Source of the DNA: a virus
Taxonomy: Duplodnaviria; Heunggongvirae; Uroviricota; Caudoviricetes
DNA length: 64,000 bases
Virus record (IMG/VR): IMGVR_UViG_3300042868_014220
Reading direction: 5' to 3' (one strand)
Each line of letters begins with the position of its first letter. The first letter of the stretch is position 1. Under the pieces are notes generated by a model that made no database searches, was not told the DNA's origin, and saw nothing but the letters and a program-made list of their open reading frames with translations. The position numbers and the translations under genes are program-made. This document shows positions 987-64,000 of this stretch, piece after piece.

Positions 987-1377
987 GGGGGTATAATGGT
1001 ATTGATTGGCATTATTATTTATTTAGGGCACGTAGTGAGATGTTTCCTATCACTTTAATCTATGGTAATAAAAACTAAACGGCAACGTTTTAAACAAAAT
1101 GGCTCTAGTAGGTCTTGTTAAGCAAGATGAGCTTGTATCAGTAGCGTAAGCTTTGGTATATTCGGGTCGGGGAGACGTTAACCTAGGAACAGGAGTCTCT
1201 ATAGGGTGTGGTTTCTATCCTAAAAGAAACAAGTGGAGGATTAGTTCTCAGTAAACCGAACCACTTAAAAATAAGGGAATTGTGAATTTTGGAGTGTTAA
1301 CAAACACTATCCTAAACGTGTAGTCCTGATTATTTAGAGTGAACAAGACGAGATTTCGACTATCTCTACCTCCACCA
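987..1377 (+). ncRNA. ssrA: Candidate tmRNA (ssrA); encoded CCA at 1375-1377
   Basis: 5' GGGGGTA pairs with 3' TACCTCC (G3:U70 wobble, Ala identity); perfect T-arm GAGAT-TTCGACT-ATCTC; discriminator A + CCA; internal short tag-like ORF ending ..DELVSVA-TAA (~1102-1149); intrinsic terminator follows; smpB present at 53663-54097. Confidence 0.55.
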
Positions 1378-7560: not shown

Positions 7561-7644
7561 CGGAAGGTGAGGGGTTCGAACCCTCGCATCATTTATAGAT
7601 GTACGGTTTAGCAAACCGCTGCGTTACCACTCTGCCAACCTTCC
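7561..7644 (-). tRNA. tRNA-Ser (GCT), type II
   Basis: 7-bp acceptor GGAAGGT/ACCTTCC, T-arm GAGGG-TTCGAAC-CCCTC, anticodon loop TTGCTAA, long variable arm. Confidence 0.65.
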
Positions 7645-7704
7645 TTGTATTATTACTGTTCCAAAATGAATAAAAAAATAGAGTTTTGGAACACTAATAA
7701 TTTT

Positions 7705-8181
7705 TTATCTTATTTTCCAGGCTCCGTTGATGTGTTTCTTCATTTGTTTACCATCGGCAAGGTTTCCGATTACAACACCATCTTTAATGGTAAACGCATG
7801 GCGATTAACAGTAACAATATAGGTCCCTACAGGATATCTTTTAATAAATGAACCCGTGGTTGTCCTCCTAAGAGTTTTCATACCTTTTACGGTTACATAA
7901 TATAACATTGTATTATGTTCTTCGGTAACGATTTCAATACTTTTACCGTTAATTTGTTCGTTGTTTTTAGATAACAAGTTTATTGTGCTTGCAAATCTAT
8001 AAACACCTTTTTTATTGTTTCTACAGAATTTTTCTTTTGTGAATTTGTGTGCAGAATCATAATCCATATCAGCTGCGGTTGCGATTGCTCTTACAACACA
8101 ATCATTATCTTCAGATTTTGCAATTACAGATTCTGATATTCCTTTGATTACTTCTCTTGATGATATATATCCCTTATTCAT
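7705..8181 (-). CDS. Hypothetical protein
   Basis: Protein-like ORF between tRNA-Ser and ferritin gene. Confidence 0.5.
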   Translation of the reverse strand: MNKGYISSREVIKGISESVIAKSEDNDCVVRAIATAADMDYDSAHKFTKEKFCRNNKKGVYRFASTINLLSKNNEQINGKSIEIVTEEHNTMLYYVTVKGMKTLRRTTTGSFIKRYPVGTYIVTVNRHAFTIKDGVVIGNLADGKQMKKHINGAWKIR

Positions 8182-8269
8182 GGTACAAAGATAAAGAAAA
8201 GATTTTAAACCGCAAAAAAAAATCCCACCGAATACTCAGAGGGATTTTACTTTAATGTATTTGTGTAGA

Positions 8270-9590: not shown

Positions 9591-9721
9591 ATTTATTAAA
9601 ATCAATTGTGGGTTTCCATTTCCACTCCGACAACTTCAGTCAATGTGATTTGTGGTAGTGTACCTCTACCTTAGACACTTCGGAACGACCCACTGTATGT
9701 GGTCTGTCGTTAATTGATTAG

Positions 9722-9803
9722 TGGTTAGAACAGGATTCGAACCTGTGACAATACAACCTTTACAGGGTGACATAACCTCTTTGCCATTACGTATTACCTA
9801 ACC
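9722..9803 (-). tRNA. Type II tRNA, anticodon probably GTA (second Tyr-like) with imperfect anticodon stem
   Basis: Acceptor GGTTAGG/TCTAACC, T-arm ACAGG-TTCGAAT-CCTGT, loop CTGTAAA, long variable region. Confidence 0.45.
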
Positions 9804-9980: not shown

Positions 9981-10073
9981 GCTGATTAAAAAGGATTCGA
10001 ACCTTAATCCTACTCCCTATTGTCTTCGGTTAAGAATATCGTCGGGTGGAGTGCTCCATTACACTATAATCAA
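9981..10073 (-). tRNA. Atypical elongated tRNA-like gene (93 nt) with ~20-nt insert in anticodon/variable region
   Basis: Acceptor TTGATTA/TAATCAG, D-arm GTGT-AATGGA-GCAC, T-loop TTCGAAT intact; no canonical anticodon arm found. Confidence 0.35.
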
Positions 10074-10122: not shown

Positions 10123-10232
10123 CAGTCAGGACAGGATTCGAACCTGTATGTGATTTGACATGCTTTTTTATAATGCTTCCTAAATCACTTATCCGCCTTC
10201 AGTTTTTGCGTCTACCATTCCGCCACCTAACT
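10123..10232 (-). tRNA. tRNA-Leu-like gene with ~27-nt insertion (110 nt)
   Basis: Acceptor AGTTAGG/CCTGACT, Leu-type D-arm TGGCGGAATGGTAGACGC, T-arm ACAGG-TTCGAAT-CCTGT; internal GTGATTT...AAATCAC hairpin. Confidence 0.4.
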
Positions 10233-10293
10233 AAATTCTAATTCTATACAGTCACAACATGGGACCCTATGAATTAGTAACAGTCTCACCTCG

Positions 10294-10384
10294 TAGTCAG
10301 TAGAGGATTCGAACCTCCCATCTATGTGGCTACCGTATTTGTGGTGACTCGAACACCGCCTCTAAGACTGACCAACATCCGACT
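10294..10384 (-). other. tRNA-like element with two T-arm modules (double-T-arm), no anticodon arm
   Basis: Acceptor AGTCGGA/ACTGACT; hairpins GGTG-TTCGAGT-CACC and GGAGG-TTCGAAT-CCTCT. Confidence 0.35.
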
Positions 10385-10511
10385 ATTTTGAAAAGATATA
10401 TGGTGTCGCTCCACAGCCTCTACAACCTAAGGATTTTGCTCAGAAGGGATATTATCCGCTCCGTACTTATCCGAGTTGCTAACCCTGTCCTTTCGAGACA
10501 GATATCTTTTG

Positions 10512-10663: not shown

Positions 10664-10797
10664 AAATTGACTTTACCTTACAAAGTCTAAGTAGGTTTAG
10701 TTGCGGTCTCTCCTACCTGATGAAGGCTCTTTTTGTGATTAATCATCACAGGCACGTTATTCATCATTTTAACACGAAGCCAACGTGTTGCTCATCG

Positions 10798-10863
10798 TAG
10801 TCAATACAGGATTCGAACCTGCCCTTGGTAATTACTCCCGTGGTGCCGCTCCACTAATTGACT
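10798..10863 (-). other. Short (66 nt) degenerate tRNA-like element
   Basis: Acceptor AGTCAAT/ATTGACT, D-arm GTGG-AGCGGCA-CCAC, T-arm GCAGG-TTCGAAT-CCTGT; anticodon arm absent. Confidence 0.3.
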
Positions 10864-14890: not shown

Positions 14891-15077
14891 GTTGTTTCTT
14901 AAATGGAATCGCCATTTGTTGCTTTGTAAATTGCAATAACCAAACCAACCACCCAACCAACAATAACTAAAGTGATTAGGACATCTTTCATTGATAATTT
15001 TCTTAACATATTCATACTATTTTTTTATTTAGGTCACAAAGATACTATAAAATTCTTAATTACCAAATTTATTTTTG

Positions 15078-15160
15078 AGCCTCCTGACGGATTCGAACCG
15101 CCGCGTCCTTACGAAACCTGATTACAAGTCAGGTGCAATCAACCACTATGCGAAGGAGGC
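15078..15160 (-). tRNA. Type II-length tRNA with apparent anticodon TGT (Thr) - identity ambiguous
   Basis: Acceptor GCCTCCT/AGGAGGC, anticodon stem-loop CCTGA-CTTGTAA-TCAGG, ~14-nt variable arm, T-arm GGCGG-TTCGAAT-CCGTC. Confidence 0.45.
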
Positions 15161-15973: not shown

Positions 15974-16006
15974 ATTATAAAAAAACTTGGAAGTGTTAAT
16001 TATTTG

Positions 16007-16090
16007 CTGGCACGGTAGGATTCGAACCTACGGTGTGGTTGCCCAGTCAGGTTAACAGCCTGATGCTCTCGGCCTCTAAGCGACGTACCA
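16007..16090 (-). tRNA. Type II-length tRNA with apparent anticodon GTT (Asn) - identity ambiguous
   Basis: Acceptor TGGTACG/CGTGCCA, anticodon stem-loop TCAGG-CTGTTAA-CCTGA, ~14-nt variable region. Confidence 0.45.
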
Positions 16091-17237: not shown

Positions 17238-18137
17238 TTATTTCTTTTTAAATTGTTCAAACCATTTATTAAATACTCCTATAAGAATATTATTTCTACC
17301 CATAGCATAAGCATCTTTAGCTATTACTTCAACTTCTTCCTCACTATACATTCTTTCTTTTTGCCAATTAGTACCTTCTAAAAACATATCTTTCCAATAT
17401 TCACTATCTTGCGGTGGATGGTATGGATACTTTTCATATAATAATTTAGTAGCCGCTTCTTCAATTGTTTCTTGTAAAGGTTCACAATCACAAGTTATAG
17501 TATGACCACAATAACATTTAATTTGTTTTTCTTGTGGAACCACAGCACTTATTCTTGTACCACTTAACTGATAAAACTCAGAGACTTGTAATAAGTAACC
17601 GGCTTGTTCTGATGTTAAGTTTTCAAATCTTATATGTTTATTGTGAAACAGAACATCTATAGTGGCTTTATCATTTATTACAATATCTTTGCAAGGATTA
17701 GGTTCTTCTTGTGGAATGATGATTTTGTAACCTAAATTCATCGGTTCTTCTAAATCAAATCCCCAATTACTATTTGGAATAGAGTCAATATTAATTGTAT
17801 CACAACTTGGATTCTTTACAAACCATTCTAAATATTCTTCATCAATCTCTTGAACACCATCTTTGATAAGGTCTGGGTCTGTTGTTAAAATGATTTTTTT
17901 ATCAAAACTTTGTGGCTGTAATAACAATCCATTTTTTGGATGATGTTTAATTATTTTTTTAGTATTAACTTGAACAAACCAATCTCCTCCTTTAATTTCT
18001 TCATCAGAAGTGATGTAGATGTGAAATCCTTTAAATTCCCCGTATCTAATTTTTTCTATAATGGAAAAGTGTAATCCATTTTTTGACTCGAATATACCTG
18101 TTGGTTTATCTGTTGGTATTAAATGTATGTTTTTCAT
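17238..18137 (-). CDS. Hypothetical protein with C-terminal ETIEEAA domain (paralog 3)
   Basis: C-terminus ...QETIEEAATKLLYEKYPY...WFEQFKKK. Confidence 0.55.
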   Translation of the reverse strand: MKNIHLIPTDKPTGIFESKNGLHFSIIEKIRYGEFKGFHIYITSDEEIKGGDWFVQVNTKKIIKHHPKNGLLLQPQSFDKKIILTTDPDLIKDGVQEIDEEYLEWFVKNPSCDTINIDSIPNSNWGFDLEEPMNLGYKIIIPQEEPNPCKDIVINDKATIDVLFHNKHIRFENLTSEQAGYLLQVSEFYQLSGTRISAVVPQEKQIKCYCGHTITCDCEPLQETIEEAATKLLYEKYPYHPPQDSEYWKDMFLEGTNWQKERMYSEEEVEVIAKDAYAMGRNNILIGVFNKWFEQFKKK

Positions 18138-18198
18138 ATTAAATTATTGTTTAGCAAAGATACATTCTTTATTTTTATCCACCAAATTTATTTTATTG

Positions 18199-18288
18199 TA
18201 GTCAGGACAGGATTCGAACCTATAATCCGTTCTATCACCGTTTCTAGGGGATTCGAACCCCGATAGATAGGACAACCGTCACCTGACT
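18199..18288 (-). other. tRNA-like element with two T-arm modules (double-T-arm), shares acceptor AGTCAGG/CCTGACT with Leu-like genes
   Basis: Hairpins CGGGG-TTCGAAT-CCCCT and ATAGG-TTCGAAT-CCTGT; no D-arm or anticodon arm. Confidence 0.35.
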
Positions 18289-18294
18289 ATATTT

Positions 18295-18558
18295 TTACGT
18301 TACAATTGTGTTATGAATTTCATTGAAGGTGTATCTCTTTTTTACATATTCCACATCCTCCTTAAAAATATCCTCCACTGTTTTTATTTTTTTGTAAATC
18401 TCAGGACACATATACTTTTTACCCAAAGAATGACCTTCAACTAAATTCCAAGATTTTTCTCTAGACCACCAACTTTTAAATTTCCATTCATAGACGGAAT
18501 ATTGATAACAATTGGCTATGGTGTTATCGACAATCGTTAATTTATATATTTTATCCAT
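18295..18558 (-). CDS. Hypothetical protein
   Basis: ORF. Confidence 0.45.
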   Translation of the reverse strand: MDKIYKLTIVDNTIANCYQYSVYEWKFKSWWSREKSWNLVEGHSLGKKYMCPEIYKKIKTVEDIFKEDVEYVKKRYTFNEIHNTIVT

Positions 18559-18572
18559 ATTTTTCTTTTTTG

Positions 18573-18702
18573 CAGTCAGGACAGGACTCGAACCTGTATA
18601 TCAACCTCTGCGACAGAGCAATTCTTATTATATGGTGCGACCCATTTTTATTATTGTTGTAGTTGACTATCTCTGTAGCGTCTACCATTCCGCCACCTGA
18701 CT
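18573..18702 (-). tRNA. tRNA-Leu-like gene carrying ~43-nt insertion in anticodon loop region (130 nt)
   Basis: Acceptor AGTCAGG/CCTGACT, Leu-type D-arm TGGCGGAATGGTAGACGC, anticodon stem ACAGAG/CTCTGT enclosing 43 nt, variable arm, T-arm ACAGG-TTCGAGT-CCTGT. Confidence 0.45.
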
Positions 18703-18850
18703 ATGTTATTTTATAACTTTAACGTATTGTGTATGAAACCAATGAGGTTCGTTTCTATGTACGTAAAAGCCGTAAAGTAATAATGATGTAAAAAATATCA
18801 TCAATACAACAACTTTTAATTTATCTTTTGTGTCTGTTTTCATAATACTT

Positions 18851-19069
18851 TTAATAGGTTTTAAGTTTGATTGTATCTCCCTCAAAATATTGTTTACTTG
18901 AAAAGATTACACCTGTTTGTGTTGTATCTTGTAAGTTTTTCACCTCGTATTTGTATTGACCGTCACTAACGGTTTGACAACACAATACTAAAAATAATTT
19001 AATTGCTATTATTGTTTTCATTTGTGAGTACAAAAGTAACACTATTAAATCAATTTTCCAAATGGTCAA
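18851..19069 (-). CDS. Small secreted hypothetical protein
   Basis: Short ORF with hydrophobic N-terminus. Confidence 0.35.
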   Translation of the reverse strand: MTIWKIDLIVLLLYSQMKTIIAIKLFLVLCCQTVSDGQYKYEVKNLQDTTQTGVIFSSKQYFEGDTIKLKTY

Positions 19070-20334: not shown

Positions 20335-20411
20335 TGGGCCTAGAGGGATTTGAACCCCCGTGTAACCAGCTACGCTTTCTACGCATTATGAGTGCGAGGC
20401 GATATAGGCCC
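20335..20411 (-). other. Degenerate tRNA-like element (intact acceptor and T-arm, possible CAT anticodon loop, D-arm missing)
   Basis: Acceptor GGGCCTA/TAGGCCC, T-arm GGGGG-TTCAAAT-CCCTC. Confidence 0.3.
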
Positions 20412-32432: not shown

Positions 32433-32512
32433 AACAACTAAAACTATGATAAAAATCCTCATCTTAATCAGTGGGGATTTTTTTATTCCATAATTTTTAT
32501 TATATTTGCATC

Positions 32513-33724
32513 GTGAATCAATTTTTATACACATTAGAACAATACTCAAGGACTGGCCATCTATTCAAACAAGACCATCCTACACTACCATTGTCTATAT
32601 GGAACTACACACCTGAAGTTCAATATGGTCAGTCGTGGGATGAGGTTACTTTGCAGTGTCGTGGATTGGTTACCGATAATGAAGGTAATATTGTTGCTCG
32701 TCCATTCAAAAAATTCTTCAACATAGAAGAAGGTAAACATACTCCAACTGAAGAGTTTGATGTGTTTGAAAAAATGGATGGTTCATTGGGTATTCTTTTT
32801 TATTATGAAGGTGAATTGTTAACTGATGAGGAAAGATATAACATATGGTTTAATAACAATTACGAAACAGGTATGGAAAGGTTCTTTGACCCAAATAAAC
32901 TACCAGAATTTGATAATCCATATTATAAACCAACACCAAAAACAAAAGGTGAATGGATATTTGCAAGTCGTGGTTCATTTACTTCGGACCAATCAAAAAA
33001 AGGTCGAGAATTACTTGAAAAGTATAACTACCAAAGATTGGATACTAACTACACTTATTTGTTTGAAATAATCTTCACCAAAAATAGAATAGTTGTGGAT
33101 TATGGTGATATGGAAGATTTGGTATTACTTGGAATGATACATACCAAAACTGGATATGAGGTTGATATACATTTGGGTAATGATAGAGATATCAGGTTTA
33201 AAAACTTGGTAAGAAATCTTGGATTTAACATCGTTAAAAAATATGATGGTATAAAGGATTACAACGCCTTAAAAGAAATGGTGGAAAACAATGCTGAAGG
33301 GTTTGTTGTTCTATTTTCTAATGGGGATAGAATGAAAGTTAAAGGTGAAGAGTATATTCGTCTTCACAAAATAATGACAAATATATCAACCACTGGTGTA
33401 TGGGAAATGCTGTCTTCAGGTGGTGATATTAACGAACACTTAAAAGATGTTCCTGACGAATTTTATCAAAAAGTTAAACAATATGCAGACAATTTGAAAT
33501 ACGCTTATTTTCAAGTATCAGAGCATTGTGGAAAATCTCACGATTATTTCCGTTATGGAAAATATGGTGATAGGGAAATTGAACCAACAAAGAAAGAATT
33601 TGCGGAGCATGTTATGAAATATTGTCATCCTCCATATCGTGCGGTGATGTTTGCAATGTGGGATGGAAAACCATATGAAAAGATTATTTGGCAAATAATT
33701 AAACCTGAATTTAAAAAACTTTAA
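32513..33724 (+). CDS. ATP-dependent RNA ligase-family nucleotidyltransferase (GTG start after TATATTTG promoter)
   Basis: Motif I KMDGS (KxDG), motif IV EGFVV, motif V KVKGEEYIRLHK. Confidence 0.65.
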   Translation: MNQFLYTLEQYSRTGHLFKQDHPTLPLSIWNYTPEVQYGQSWDEVTLQCRGLVTDNEGNIVARPFKKFFNIEEGKHTPTEEFDVFEKMDGSLGILFYYEGELLTDEERYNIWFNNNYETGMERFFDPNKLPEFDNPYYKPTPKTKGEWIFASRGSFTSDQSKKGRELLEKYNYQRLDTNYTYLFEIIFTKNRIVVDYGDMEDLVLLGMIHTKTGYEVDIHLGNDRDIRFKNLVRNLGFNIVKKYDGIKDYNALKEMVENNAEGFVVLFSNGDRMKVKGEEYIRLHKIMTNISTTGVWEMLSSGGDINEHLKDVPDEFYQKVKQYADNLKYAYFQVSEHCGKSHDYFRYGKYGDREIEPTKKEFAEHVMKYCHPPYRAVMFAMWDGKPYEKIIWQIIKPEFKKL

Positions 33725-62386: not shown

Positions 62387-64000
62387 CTAGTCTTTTATAA
62401 ATTTGGAATAGAATCTTAATCCACTTTTCTTAACCAATTGGATGATATAAAATCCTTTTTGTAATTCTTCGGTATTAATTTTTATTAATTCCCCGTTAAA
62501 TTGACTCAAATCTATTTCTTGGATAGTTTTTCCTTGAATATCGGTAATTAAGATTGTTTCATAAGTTTGTAATTGTCCTTGAATTAGTAAATTCAAATTT
62601 TTTTGATTTGGATTAGGGTACAAAGCCTTTATACCAGTTTGGGTATTGCTGTGCTCTAATTGTACAATATTACTAAAGGTAATTAATCCACTATTTTCTG
62701 TAATTCTGAGTTGGTAATAGGTTGAATTATAAGCCAGATGTTGTGTGTTTATAAATTCATAGTGTGTCAATGAATTGGTGTTATTTAATGCCGTGATATC
62801 ACCTATCGGATTAAAATTGAAACCATCATAAGAAATCATAATCTCATATTTATCGATGTCACTTTCATCGGCAACCTGCCACTCAATATAATGATGATTC
62901 ATTACTTGATAGGCTTCAAAAGAAATTAATTTGACGGGTAAAGGAATACAAAACGGAGTTAAAATAAAGGTGTCTCTAATGGTTTGGCAAATGTTATTTT
63001 CTATTTGCCACACAAGACTGTAAGTTCTTAGTGAATCCCCTGTGAAGGTGGCATTAGGATTGTGAATATCACTGATAGTGCCTCCCGAACCGCTTATAAT
63101 AATCCATGTGCCCTTAGAATTTCCGTTTGTTGATTGTGCATTTAATTGACAAGACCCACAGTGAGTATCAGAATCTGATGCAGATGAAATGTGTCGGTCA
63201 ATAATGGACGAAACAATGAATAATCCATTGGTTGTACCCGCACCTCCTCTCGTAGCTCCATTCGCTATAAATTCTGTTAATGCTGCAGAAGTAGTAGTAC
63301 CATTTACACCACCATTTGCTATTCTTGTTGGGCTCCCGTTTGAGATAGAAATAGTTCCACCGCCACCTCCACCTCCTGGACCTTCTGCTTCGTTACTAGT
63401 TATTAATTGATTACCTCCATTACCGCCATTTGTAAATAAGTTTAAAGTGTTTGCTATTGTGCCATCAACGCTTAATAAGACTGTACCACCACCGCCACCA
63501 CCACCAGGAGCATCATTGTGTCCCGCCGTTGTATTGGGTGAGTTTCCTCCACTTGAGGTAATAACGCCACTTCCTGATAAATTACCATAGCAAAGAATCA
63601 AAACTATTCCACCCCCGTGGCCACCTCTTGTTGCTGCCGAATTATTACCATCACCTGCACCTCCTCCGCCTCCAAAAAATGTTCTAGTATTGCTAAAAAC
63701 CAAAGGCCTTCCACCATAGCCACCCGAATTTCTTCTCCAATCTCCACCCCAAAGACTATTACCAGGTGCGGTTATTATTGCATCTCTATTAGCCCCAGAA
63801 TAAGTATATCCCCCTCTACCTCCTCCAGATGAAGTATTTGTTGAAAATGTACCTCCTTCCAAATTCCATGCGGTTGTCCAATTAATTGGTCCGTTGTCCG
63901 GATTTCCTAGTCCGTTCCAAGCAGATACAACCCCACCATTTGCACCACCCCCACCACCAGCATTGTGAGAATTACCCCCTCCCCCTCCATTTGCAGGAGC
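62387..64000 (-). CDS. Partial CDS (N-terminus outside window): glycine-rich repeat protein with Bacteroidota T9SS C-terminal sorting domain
   Basis: Reading frame open to window edge; GGGGG/NGGNGG repeats; C-terminus ...LYPNPNQKNLNLLIQ...ITDIQGKTIQEIDL...LQKGFYIIQLVKKSGLRFYSKFIKD typical of the Por-secretion CTD. Confidence 0.6.
   Translation of the reverse strand, partial: APANGGGGGNSHNAGGGGGANGGVVSAWNGLGNPDNGPINWTTAWNLEGGTFSTNTSSGGGRGGYTYSGANRDAIITAPGNSLWGGDWRRNSGGYGGRPLVFSNTRTFFGGGGGAGDGNNSAATRGGHGGGIVLILCYGNLSGSGVITSSGGNSPNTTAGHNDAPGGGGGGGTVLLSVDGTIANTLNLFTNGGNGGNQLITSNEAEGPGGGGGGGTISISNGSPTRIANGGVNGTTTSAALTEFIANGATRGGAGTTNGLFIVSSIIDRHISSASDSDTHCGSCQLNAQSTNGNSKGTWIIISGSGGTISDIHNPNATFTGDSLRTYSLVWQIENNICQTIRDTFILTPFCIPLPVKLISFEAYQVMNHHYIEWQVADESDIDKYEIMISYDGFNFNPIGDITALNNTNSLTHYEFINTQHLAYNSTYYQLRITENSGLITFSNIVQLEHSNTQTGIKALYPNPNQKNLNLLIQGQLQTYETILITDIQGKTIQEIDLSQFNGELIKINTEELQKGFYIIQLVKKSGLRFYSKFIKD

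Follow-up and report, generated by a model that had tools for sequence, protein, structure and literature searches.

A family of tRNA-Leu-like phage genes with an apparently exchangeable insert in place of the anticodon and variable arms

RNAs that borrow the form of a tRNA have been described in several settings. Here we set beside them a tRNA-like element, E7, located at positions 18573..18702 (minus strand) of a 64,000-nucleotide stretch of DNA from a Caudoviricetes phage (IMG/VR record IMGVR_UViG_3300042868_014220); the whole stretch is referred to as the window. The TMER viral tRNAs (vtRNAs) of murine gammaherpesvirus 68 (MHV68) and the mammalian mascRNA are tRNA-shaped, are matured by RNase P and RNase Z, bear CCA and do not decode, and the viral ones are multicopy. 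They are eukaryotic, depend on RNA polymerase III (Pol III) or on a host long non-coding RNA, carry their extra hairpins on the 3' side of the tRNA-like body and, to our knowledge, have no conserved set of aminoacyl-tRNA synthetase identity elements. YrlA, a bacterial and phage Y RNA, mimics the tRNA elbow with a T arm, a D arm and an acceptor-like stem joined to an unrelated second module, in a permuted topology that ends at the Ro60-binding stem and leaves the "acceptor" capped. Transfer-messenger RNA (tmRNA) has a tRNA-like domain of acceptor and T arm, a large insert at the site of the anticodon arm, the alanine identity pair G3:U70, pseudoknots and a tag open reading frame (ORF). The T4 species 1 and 2 RNAs (RNAC and RNAD) are stable RNAs of 119-139 nt, encoded in the tRNA cluster on the strand of the tRNAs, and their function is not known (PMC3014915, PMC9697503). 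In the engineered tRNA scaffold of Ponchon and Dardel (2007), as summarized in PMC10155629, a foreign RNA replaces the anticodon loop or arm, and the chimera is stable and is handled by the tRNA processing enzymes.

As far as that summary describes it, the engineered scaffold has the same architecture as E7 and its relatives, but it is man-made, whereas they are natural, multicopy and evolving. The extra segment of the E7 family sits inside the tRNA-like body and not 3' of it as in the vtRNAs and mascRNA. Unlike YrlA, E7 forms its acceptor stem from its own ends, and no Rfam Y RNA model matches at E7. The likeness to tmRNA is confined to the tRNA-like domain and the site of the insert, as E7 has U3:A70 and a middle of 52-80 nt that is free of pseudoknots and of a tag ORF. 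The tmRNA model RF00023 gives no match at E7, while the real tmRNA of the window (987..1377, plus strand) scores 65.8 bits in Rfam. RNAC and RNAD resemble the family as small phage RNAs of a tRNA cluster, and T4 rnaC (L152; NC_000866 70908..71046) ends in the canonical T-arm sequence CCGGGUUCGAAUCCCGG (CCGGGTTCGAATCCCGG). Yet no sequence similarity of the T4 RNAs to the family was seen, they are single copies and lack a variable centre, and neither a matching 7-bp acceptor stem nor a Leu-type D arm was found in rnaC by eye. None of the compared systems unites a true tRNA topology, a fixed scaffold derived from tRNA-Leu, a hypervariable and exchangeable centre, and multicopy spread over many phages. 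Judged from its sequence, E7 appears to be a real gene of a family in which a tRNA-Leu-like upper body holds an exchangeable insert, here termed the cargo, in place of the anticodon and variable arms. The reading that we favor, with somewhat better than even confidence, is that E7 encodes a non-decoding, tRNA-processed mimic of tRNA-Leu, whose cargo would be swapped by recombination within the scaffold and which would act as a host-takeover or counter-defense factor.

The tRNA-Leu-like frame and its family

The original prediction described a tRNA frame with an acceptor stem, a Leu-type D arm and a T arm, and this frame is indeed present on the minus strand. It consists of a 129-nt tRNA-like gene (18702..18574) with the discriminator G73 at 18573, beyond which the sequence continues as CAAAA. 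The 5' strand of the acceptor stem, AGUCAGG (18696..18702), has the sequence seen throughout the family and forms seven of seven pairs with the 3' strand, CCUGACU (18574..18580). T8 and G9 lie between this strand and the D arm, and the whole reads AGTCAGG-TG-GCGGAATGGTAGACGC-T-[80 nt]-ACAGG-TTCGAGT-CCTGT-CCTGACT. The D arm GCGGAATGGTAGACGC (GCGGAAUGGUAGACGC as RNA; 18678..18693) is of the bacterial tRNA-Leu type, with a 3-bp stem, a G13.A22 pair and A14, A15, G18 and G19 in its loop. The T arm ACAGG-UUCGAGU-CCUGU (18581..18597) is canonical. The cargo (18598..18677) comprises the 80 nt that replace the anticodon and variable arms, with U48 at 18598. The 7-bp acceptor stem, the G18G19 D arm and the T arm with its UUCRANU loop are those of a canonical tRNA. 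The nucleotide at position -1 is T (ACAT, followed by AGTC of the gene). E7 fits its family at every position, namely the AGUCAGG acceptor, U8, U48, the T arm RCAGG-UUCGARU-CCUGU, C74 and the U-rich position -1. Its discriminator is G73 and not A73, the main determinant for E. coli leucyl-tRNA synthetase (LeuRS).

Standard tools pass over the element. Default ARAGORN and the Rfam tRNA model give no report at E7, and a permissive Rfam scan of 18400..18900 (E-values up to 10) returned no tRNA, intron or ribozyme, and only chance-level matches to microRNA and small nucleolar RNA models. The sequence of E7 is 100% identical in three contigs from other metagenome assemblies (L123, L124 and L153), which makes four independent contigs with the window, and for this reason an assembly artifact, which had been entertained at first, can be discarded. 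An exact search of IMG/VR with the 5' junction of E7 gave 0 matches, and the GenBank phages hold no relative of the E7 region and no exact copy of the scaffold. Sigma-70 promoter and terminator signals around E7 are at chance level only. The element is located 2.4 kb outside the tRNA array of the window.

The family was surveyed in IMG/VR with an exact scan for the 21-mer that spans the T arm and the acceptor strand (GGTTCGARTCCTGTCCTGACT). The scan covers at least 120 loci, and the figures for the family rest on the matches listed. At least 167 copies were found, with lengths of 53-190 nt, and a perfect 5' partner strand is present in 156 of the 167 listed; the matches listed contain 178 distinct copies. 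Several copies per contig are common, and a stretch of 4 kb in L013 holds eight elements with seven normal tRNAs interspersed. The neighboring genes of the listed loci include terminase, portal and ERF. No Pfam family is enriched among the 150 nearest ORFs, which leaves the family without a conserved partner protein in this set, and an Rfam search of 18 family-rich loci gave matches to the tRNA model only, with no known family within the cargos. Among 185,579 bacterial and archaeal species genomes the 21-mer is found in only 20 contigs, all from metagenome-assembled genomes (MAGs) and mostly short. All of them carry non-canonical elements and in no case a host tRNA, most come from Bacteroidota bins of freshwater origin, and some of the copies are solitary, with no other copy in the genome. 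Mimicry of a host tRNA by the scaffold is not indicated, as the 21-mer is absent from all isolate genomes of this set. A full-text search of the literature, incomplete in coverage and with the scaffold sequence among the queries, returned no account of the family, and a survey of 2023 touches on "tRNA-like" candidates in IMG/VR in general terms only (PMC10690425). The family is large and phage-specific, is spread widely among phages that apparently infect freshwater Bacteroidota, and is apparently undescribed so far.

The anatomy of the scaffold was examined across the 178 distinct copies, at positions outside the search pattern. In the 5' strand of the acceptor stem, A1 is conserved in 93% of the copies and G2 and U3 in 100%; U8, G9 and U48 are found in 95%, 85% and 81%, respectively. 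The discriminator is A in 92% (164/178) and G in 6%, C74 is present nearly always, CCA is encoded in 5 of the 178 copies, and U(-1) occurs in approximately 80%. The D stem is paired at all three positions in 146/178 copies, compared to about 55 in shuffles, and the replacements within it are compensatory (T-A, C-G, A-T). The D loop has GG in 141 of the 178, and the 13-22 pair is usually G.A. When the Leu-type D arm alone was used for the search, 78 of 90 matches had an acceptor of the AGTCAGG type, and the other 12 were ordinary tRNA-Leu genes with GCC... stems. What these elements conserve is the acceptor/T-arm stack plus the D arm and the core positions of the tertiary fold, which together form the tRNA "elbow". 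With bacterial class II tRNA-Leu the family shares the 7-bp acceptor, U8, the T arm, U48, A73 (in the 92% given above) and the D arm GGCGGAAU(U)GGUAGACGC, with its 3-bp stem, G13.A22, A14, A15, G18G19 and A20a. The elements common to both are reported to be sufficient for E. coli LeuRS (PMC9976931). In contrast to tRNA-Leu, the family has neither the 5-bp/7-nt anticodon arm nor a regular variable arm, and it has A1:U72 and a fixed AGUCAGG stem where the phages' own tRNA-Leu have GCC... stems. E7 differs further by its G73 and by its escape from the standard tRNA finders.

The behavior of the gene finders is in keeping with this anatomy. Many members score 31-45 bits with the Rfam tRNA model, which skips the anticodon arm through a local end. 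Default ARAGORN called 37 of 173 copies and gave them anticodons that are random or impossible, and its intron-aware mode called 96 of 178, with 49 anticodon types, and left 82 of 178 without a call. The members of 53-72 nt are too short to hold an anticodon arm. Across the family the scaffold is conserved, the D stem covaries and the anticodon arm is missing.

The cargo, its predicted fold and its apparent exchange at the E7 locus

E7 lies in a hyperplastic slot (18194..18849, minus strand) between a conserved ORF (19069..18851) and a conserved gene for a 299-aa protein (18137..17238). The relatives are 73-97% identical in nucleotide sequence and have both of these flanking genes in common, and the homology with L125, L146, L147, L149 and L151 stops at both edges of the slot. 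In the window, as in L123 and L124, the slot holds ORF59, E7, ORF87 and E6 (a sibling element). L125 has two other elements, X1 and X2, and two other ORFs; its X2 has the exact 5' scaffold and flank of E7 and an unrelated 83-nt cargo. L146, L149 and L150 have X1 and one ORF. L147 has a single 129-nt element with a third cargo, which continues the E7 flank on its 5' side and the E6 flank on its 3' side, while L151, with flanks 95-97% identical, has only an 83-aa ORF and no tRNA-like element. The positional orthologues of E7 in L125 and L147 therefore carry cargos unrelated to that of E7. As the contents of the slot differ between relatives and L151 lacks the element, it is accessory, and the comparison points to an exchange at this locus with the scaffold as the fixed point. 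Insert-free alleles were sought in the related phages and none was found; the same locus has unrelated inserts or no gene. E7 and E6 bracket an 87-aa ORF (ORF87, 18295..18558), with the end of E7 15 nt before its ATG, and X1 and X2 of the relatives are 26-27 nt upstream of small ORFs. The ORFs that neighbor E7 have no Pfam or PHROG function. For the 299-aa protein (17238..18137, minus strand) beside E6, over 7,800 homologues were found (E <= 1e-5) but no Pfam domain; its halves occur separately, and the homologue P0034 has NUMOD4 and HNH_3 homing-endonuclease domains.

Over the family the cargo ranges from 16 to 142 nt in length (median 51), and 136 of 157 cargo types are singletons by BLAST among the sampled copies. 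The predicted architectures are mixed, with 1-5 hairpins. Within small clusters of related cargos there are compensatory changes (GTTGAA/TTCAAC vs GAGCAA/TTGCTC in L014 and L056). The 59-nt cargo of the sibling E3 occurs with at most two differences in 9 IMG/VR contigs that include at least three other flank lineages, its surrounding D arm and T loop being more variable than the cargo itself. Five contigs without similarity over 1.5 kb to either side share the cargo of L017 at 96-100% conservation, and between phages with unrelated flanks the conservation of whole elements, together with their cargo, is 95-100%. Single cargos are thus conserved across unrelated flanks, and relatives have different cargos at one and the same locus. 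That individual cargos are so well conserved argues for a contribution of the cargo in some types at least, and the members of 53-72 nt, having almost no cargo, argue that the scaffold can be enough by itself. A second T-arm-like hairpin (5-bp stem with a UUCGAnU loop) recurs in the cargos of E6, E4, L125:1814-1933, L026, L040, L049, L072, L084, L105 and L111.

With respect to the fold of the insert, the original prediction had placed 43 nt within a 6-bp anticodon stem, followed by a variable arm. The stem ACAGAG (18676..18671)/CTCTGT (18618..18613) instead encloses 52 nt, 45 above a 7-nt loop, and the 15 nt that remain 5' of the T arm under this model hold no variable-arm hairpin. The CTCTG of this putative stem is able to pair with the adjoining CAGAG. 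When the acceptor, D and T stems were enforced in ViennaRNA, the ACAGAG/CUCUGU stem had a probability of approximately 0 (-25.2 kcal/mol). The favored fold under the same constraint was at -32.4 kcal/mol, with the predicted helix GUCAAC/GUUGAU (18667..18662/18605..18600) closing two predicted hairpins, AUGG-GUCGCA-CCAU (18645..18632) and CUCUG-UCG-CAGAG (18618..18606). All known copies of the E7 cargo are identical and offer no covariation for or against either predicted fold. The stability of the unconstrained fold of E7 is not significant (z = -1.6). Re-folding revealed no canonical anticodon arm, the only candidate stem being the disfavored one around 52 nt.

The insert had first been regarded as a possible short intron of a tRNA-Leu-like gene. 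The frame and the large insert at the site of the anticodon loop have held up, but the search for splicing features was unrewarding. Intron-aware ARAGORN forces a "tRNA-Ile(AAT)" with a 45-nt intron upon E7, which is not plausible as a bacterial anticodon, and no contiguous placement of an intron in E7 would restore a 7-nt loop containing U33 and an anticodon for Leu. Our own pattern scan found no strict or relaxed bulge-helix-bulge (BHB) motif, and at its loosest setting it found 2, vs 2.35 in shuffles. The catalytic core of a group I intron (P3-P9) takes approximately 200 nt or more. The E7 insert has 45-52 nt, and Rfam gave no match to a group I core or Intron_gpI in the window; the same search finds a group I intron in L012. 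The hammerhead, twister, pistol and hatchet models gave no match at E7 in the permissive scan of 18400..18900, and no EndA-like nuclease is present among the 30 window ORFs that were scanned against Pfam.

Two further roles for the cargo were considered and set aside. As to a tmRNA-like tag, the short frames of the E7 cargo (MGRTI*) are unremarkable for AT-rich sequence. As to an antisense or guide role, the cargos of E7 and of the other elements have no complementarity in the window beyond chance matches of 10-12 nt.

Sibling elements and neighboring genes in the window

The window is an AT-rich phage region with thymidylate synthase among its genes. The 21-mer has six minus-strand copies in it (at most three mismatches), compared to 0 in 100 shuffles. 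Further copies were flagged by T-loop motifs, and every copy has a matching 5' acceptor strand. There are eight tRNA-like genes in the window (E1-E8), all on the minus strand and all unreported by default ARAGORN, and five of them (E1-E5) are located within the tRNA cluster. E1 (9723..9803, 81 nt) has the acceptor GGUUAGG/UCUAACC and A73 and is without a canonical anticodon arm. E2 (9983..10072, 90 nt), weaker than the others, has UGAUUAU/UUAAUCA with 6/7 pairs and an ACUCC/GGAGU stem around 31 nt. E3 (10124..10232, 109 nt; AGUUAGG/CCUGACU), within the tRNA array, has the same Leu-type D arm as E7 and G73, together with the 59-nt cargo described above. E4 (10295..10373, 79 nt; GGUCAGU/ACUGACU) has an internal T-arm-like hairpin, GGUG-UUCGAGU-CACC. 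E5 (10799..10863) is a 65-nt mini element (AGUCAAU/AUUGACU) in which 17 nt separate the D arm from the T arm. E6 (18200..18288, 89 nt) has the acceptor and T arm of E7 and A73, and its cargo has a second T-arm-like hairpin, CGGGG-UUCGAAU-CCCCU. E8 (20336..20411, 76 nt; GGGCCUA/UAGGCCC) does not belong to the AGUCAGG family; its loop is CUCAUAA (anticodon CAU), its variable region is long, and a normal D arm is missing. The Rfam tRNA model gives it 34.6 bits, but ARAGORN does not report it. L125:346-421 retains E8 with C-G replaced by U-A in the acceptor, a compensatory change, and L046, with unrelated flanks, has a copy of 89% identity.

The acceptors in the window vary by compensatory changes (AGTCAGG/CCTGACT, GGTTAGG/TCTAACC, AGTCAAT/ATTGACT and GGTCAGT/ACTGACT). 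The elements are on the strand of the tRNAs, have the same "N-CAAA"-type trailer and fall in stretches that the tRNA finders leave blank, such that eight formerly "empty" stretches in or near the tRNA array of the window are now accounted for. Both in the window and in the family, the elements are found within phage tRNA arrays or next to them, and they share strand, U(-1) leader and "N-CAAA" trailer with the true tRNAs. Default ARAGORN and Rfam report 23 tRNAs in the window, one more tRNA-like match and one tmRNA. The 23 normal tRNAs serve all 20 amino acids, and the Leu(TAA) and Leu(TAG) among them have GCC... acceptor stems. Two of the tRNAs are unusual, a tRNA-Thr (15077..15160, minus strand, 84 nt) and a tRNA-Asn (16006..16090, minus strand, 85 nt), both of class I with an extra short hairpin in the variable region and GUAA/GCAA-like loops. 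Four further ORF-free stretches of the array are left blank by every tool (9591..9722, 10233..10294, 10374..10510 and 10664..10798, minus strand), and that at 10374..10510 has several G+C-rich hairpin-like segments.

An SmpB gene neighbors an element in one family-bearing IMG/VR locus. L012 also has a tmRNA, and its group I intron (7609-7837, 97.8 bits) slightly overlaps the tmRNA match (7832-8193). A 417-aa ORF of the window (32471..33724, plus strand) has a T4 RNA ligase 1 domain (PF09511, 2e-17); in T4, the Rnl1-type ligase reseals broken tRNA anticodon loops. A 491-aa ORF (62387..63862, minus strand) has a C-terminal sorting domain (Por_Secre_tail) of the type IX secretion system (T9SS), and the host is therefore probably one of the Bacteroidota.

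Proposed role, competing explanations and significance

We propose that RNase P and the enzymes of tRNA 3'-end formation would excise the RNA, that CCA would be added to it, and that it would fold to an L shape whose elbow is intact. The features recognized by RNase P, by the 3'-end nucleases and by the CCA-adding enzyme are the acceptor/T-arm stack and the elbow. As the anticodon arm is dispensable for these processing enzymes, maturation like that of a tRNA, and stability, are to be expected of the RNA, although it would be unable to read a codon. E. coli LeuRS relies on A73 and on the tertiary network of the D and T loops (A15-U48, G18G19, A20a and U8:A14), and it still charges tRNA-Leu variants from which both the anticodon arm and the variable arm are absent (PMC9976931). 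The family keeps exactly the parts that LeuRS requires. Most members are therefore plausible substrates of LeuRS and, going by the published identity elements, could be leucylated; E7, having G73, is probably not. The simplest mechanism for the exchange of cargos between phages would be a double crossover in the scaffold arms of approximately 25 nt. The RNA would then be an accessory factor of host takeover or counter-defense, a role that we favor because of the hyperplastic slots, the presence and absence of the elements in close relatives, their diversity, and recent evidence that tRNAs are often attacked by bacterial immunity and that phage tRNAs oppose this. It might act in either of two forms. 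As a tRNA mimic it would engage host proteins that bind tRNA; alternatively, it would be a stable carrier in which a tRNA frame displays the cargo, in which case it would be a natural analogue of the engineered tRNA scaffold. The "decoy tRNA" among the initial suggestions comes close to this non-decoding mimic.

Several observations weigh against the proposal of a non-decoding effector. The search pattern itself imposes part of the constancy of the acceptor and T arm, and variant acceptors exist in E1, E4 and E5. The cargos have no shared motif, with weak GNRA-type k-mers only, and a common cargo function is not evident. Nor do the cargos fold better than flanking DNA (mean z of -0.56 vs -0.57, relative to shuffles). 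The cargo of E7 has no homologue outside its own phage lineage, there being none in 160 fetched loci and, for a 20-mer of the cargo, only an identical contig of the same phage in the metagenomes. In E. coli tRNA-Ser, G73 is listed among the antideterminants for LeuRS (PMC9976931), and the idea of charging may fail for E7. Near-identical elements in unrelated genomes could also reflect selfish spread rather than benefit to the phage.

Among the alternatives, the one that survives best, although we consider it unlikely, regards the elements as modules of processing and recombination. RNase P and RNase Z would cut the transcripts to free small ORFs (tRNA punctuation), the scaffold would provide portable homology by which ORF cassettes are shuffled, like the promoter-early stem-loop (PeSL) elements in T4-type phages, and the RNA itself would have no function in trans. 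In its favor, E7 and E6 precisely bracket ORF87 at the 15-nt distance noted, X1 and X2 stand 26-27 nt ahead of small ORFs in the relatives, the L147 element joins the left flank of E7 to the right flank of E6 as expected of a cassette slot, and U(-1) with a 7-bp acceptor suits RNase P. However, arrays of the L013 type hold eight elements head-to-tail with tRNAs and no ORFs between them. Structure alone would do for this purpose, yet the acceptor sequence and the Leu-specific D loop are conserved, and the conservation of single cargos would be needless for a mere cleavage signal.

A selfish origin is also improbable in our estimate. Here the elements would be non-autonomous mini-elements of approximately 100 nt that spread through their tRNA-like ends, either as sites of recombination or integration or through an RNA intermediate, with no benefit to the phage. 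Near-identical elements in contigs without similarity of the flanks, presence that differs between close relatives, the multicopy state, the lack of a linked partner protein and the occasional proximity of HNH and T5orf172 homing-type genes are all compatible with such a life. No target-site duplication or terminal repeat was seen beyond the acceptor pairing, however, and the conserved U8, G18G19, U48 and G13.A22, with the covariation of the D stem, point to selection on a folded RNA. The swap of cargo at a fixed locus with the scaffold kept suits homologous exchange better than transposition. The mobile mini-element of the original prediction is borne out insofar as the middle behaves as an exchangeable cassette, but this is a trait of the whole family and not a one-off insertion into a working tRNA gene. 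Both the processing module and selfish spread may coexist with a function in trans.

Decay is quite improbable as an explanation. E7 would be a functionless tRNA pseudogene that arose by duplication in the array and illegitimate recombination, its likeness to the other scaffolds being maintained by gene conversion among the repeats. Pseudo-tRNAs are known in phage tRNA arrays, some members resemble fused pieces with two T arms (E4, E6 and X1 of L125), the folding energy of the cargos is unremarkable, and the element is dispensable in the close relative L151. Yet decay should not spare the arms of the scaffold (acceptor, D and T), which hardly vary over more than 120 unrelated contigs and show compensatory changes in the D stem. 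Solitary copies have no partner for conversion in the genome, and whole elements with their cargo are 95-100% conserved across unrelated flanks.

The least probable explanation by far is a functional tRNA-Leu with a new short intron in the anticodon loop, removed by self-splicing or by an endonuclease with the phage Rnl1-type ligase: the frame is complete, a 6-bp stem can close the insert, the ligase is encoded at 32471..33724 and intron-aware ARAGORN accepts E7, but no placement gives Leu or any sensible anticodon (the call being Ile(AAT)), there is no BHB and no group I or small-ribozyme match at E-values up to 10, the closing stem is disfavored by approximately 7 kcal/mol, the locus is taken in relatives by unrelated inserts or is without a gene, an insert-free allele being found in none, the "anticodons" of the family are of 49 types with 82/178 copies without a call, the 53-72-nt members cannot hold an anticodon arm, and 23 normal tRNAs already serve all 20 amino acids, Leu(TAA) and Leu(TAG) with different acceptors included.

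The non-decoding mimic of tRNA-Leu thus remains the reading that we prefer, and it bears on how phage tRNA genes are understood. These genes are being reread as counter-measures to tRNA-targeting immunity (PMC10264068, PMC11464382, PMC11555353, PMC12851939), and non-decoding look-alikes that keep the parts recognized by the processing enzymes and by LeuRS would add a new class of player and a testable set of RNAs. The standard finders miss these elements or assign arbitrary anticodons to them, and censuses of phage tRNAs, as well as arguments from codon usage, are affected as a result. A fixed scaffold with a swappable cargo is a possible route for the exchange of short non-coding genes between unrelated phages. 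A wider proposal, which we put forward only tentatively and think rather doubtful, is that phages, mainly of freshwater Bacteroidota, keep a shared pool of RNA cargo modules on one scaffold compatible with RNase P, the CCA-adding enzyme and LeuRS. Recombination in the scaffold arms would pass the modules from phage to unrelated phage, and they would act as RNA effectors or tRNA decoys in takeover of the host or against tRNA-targeting defenses. If the cassette reading is true, the family would represent an RNA-level system of accessory-gene cassettes, of a kind not so far described.

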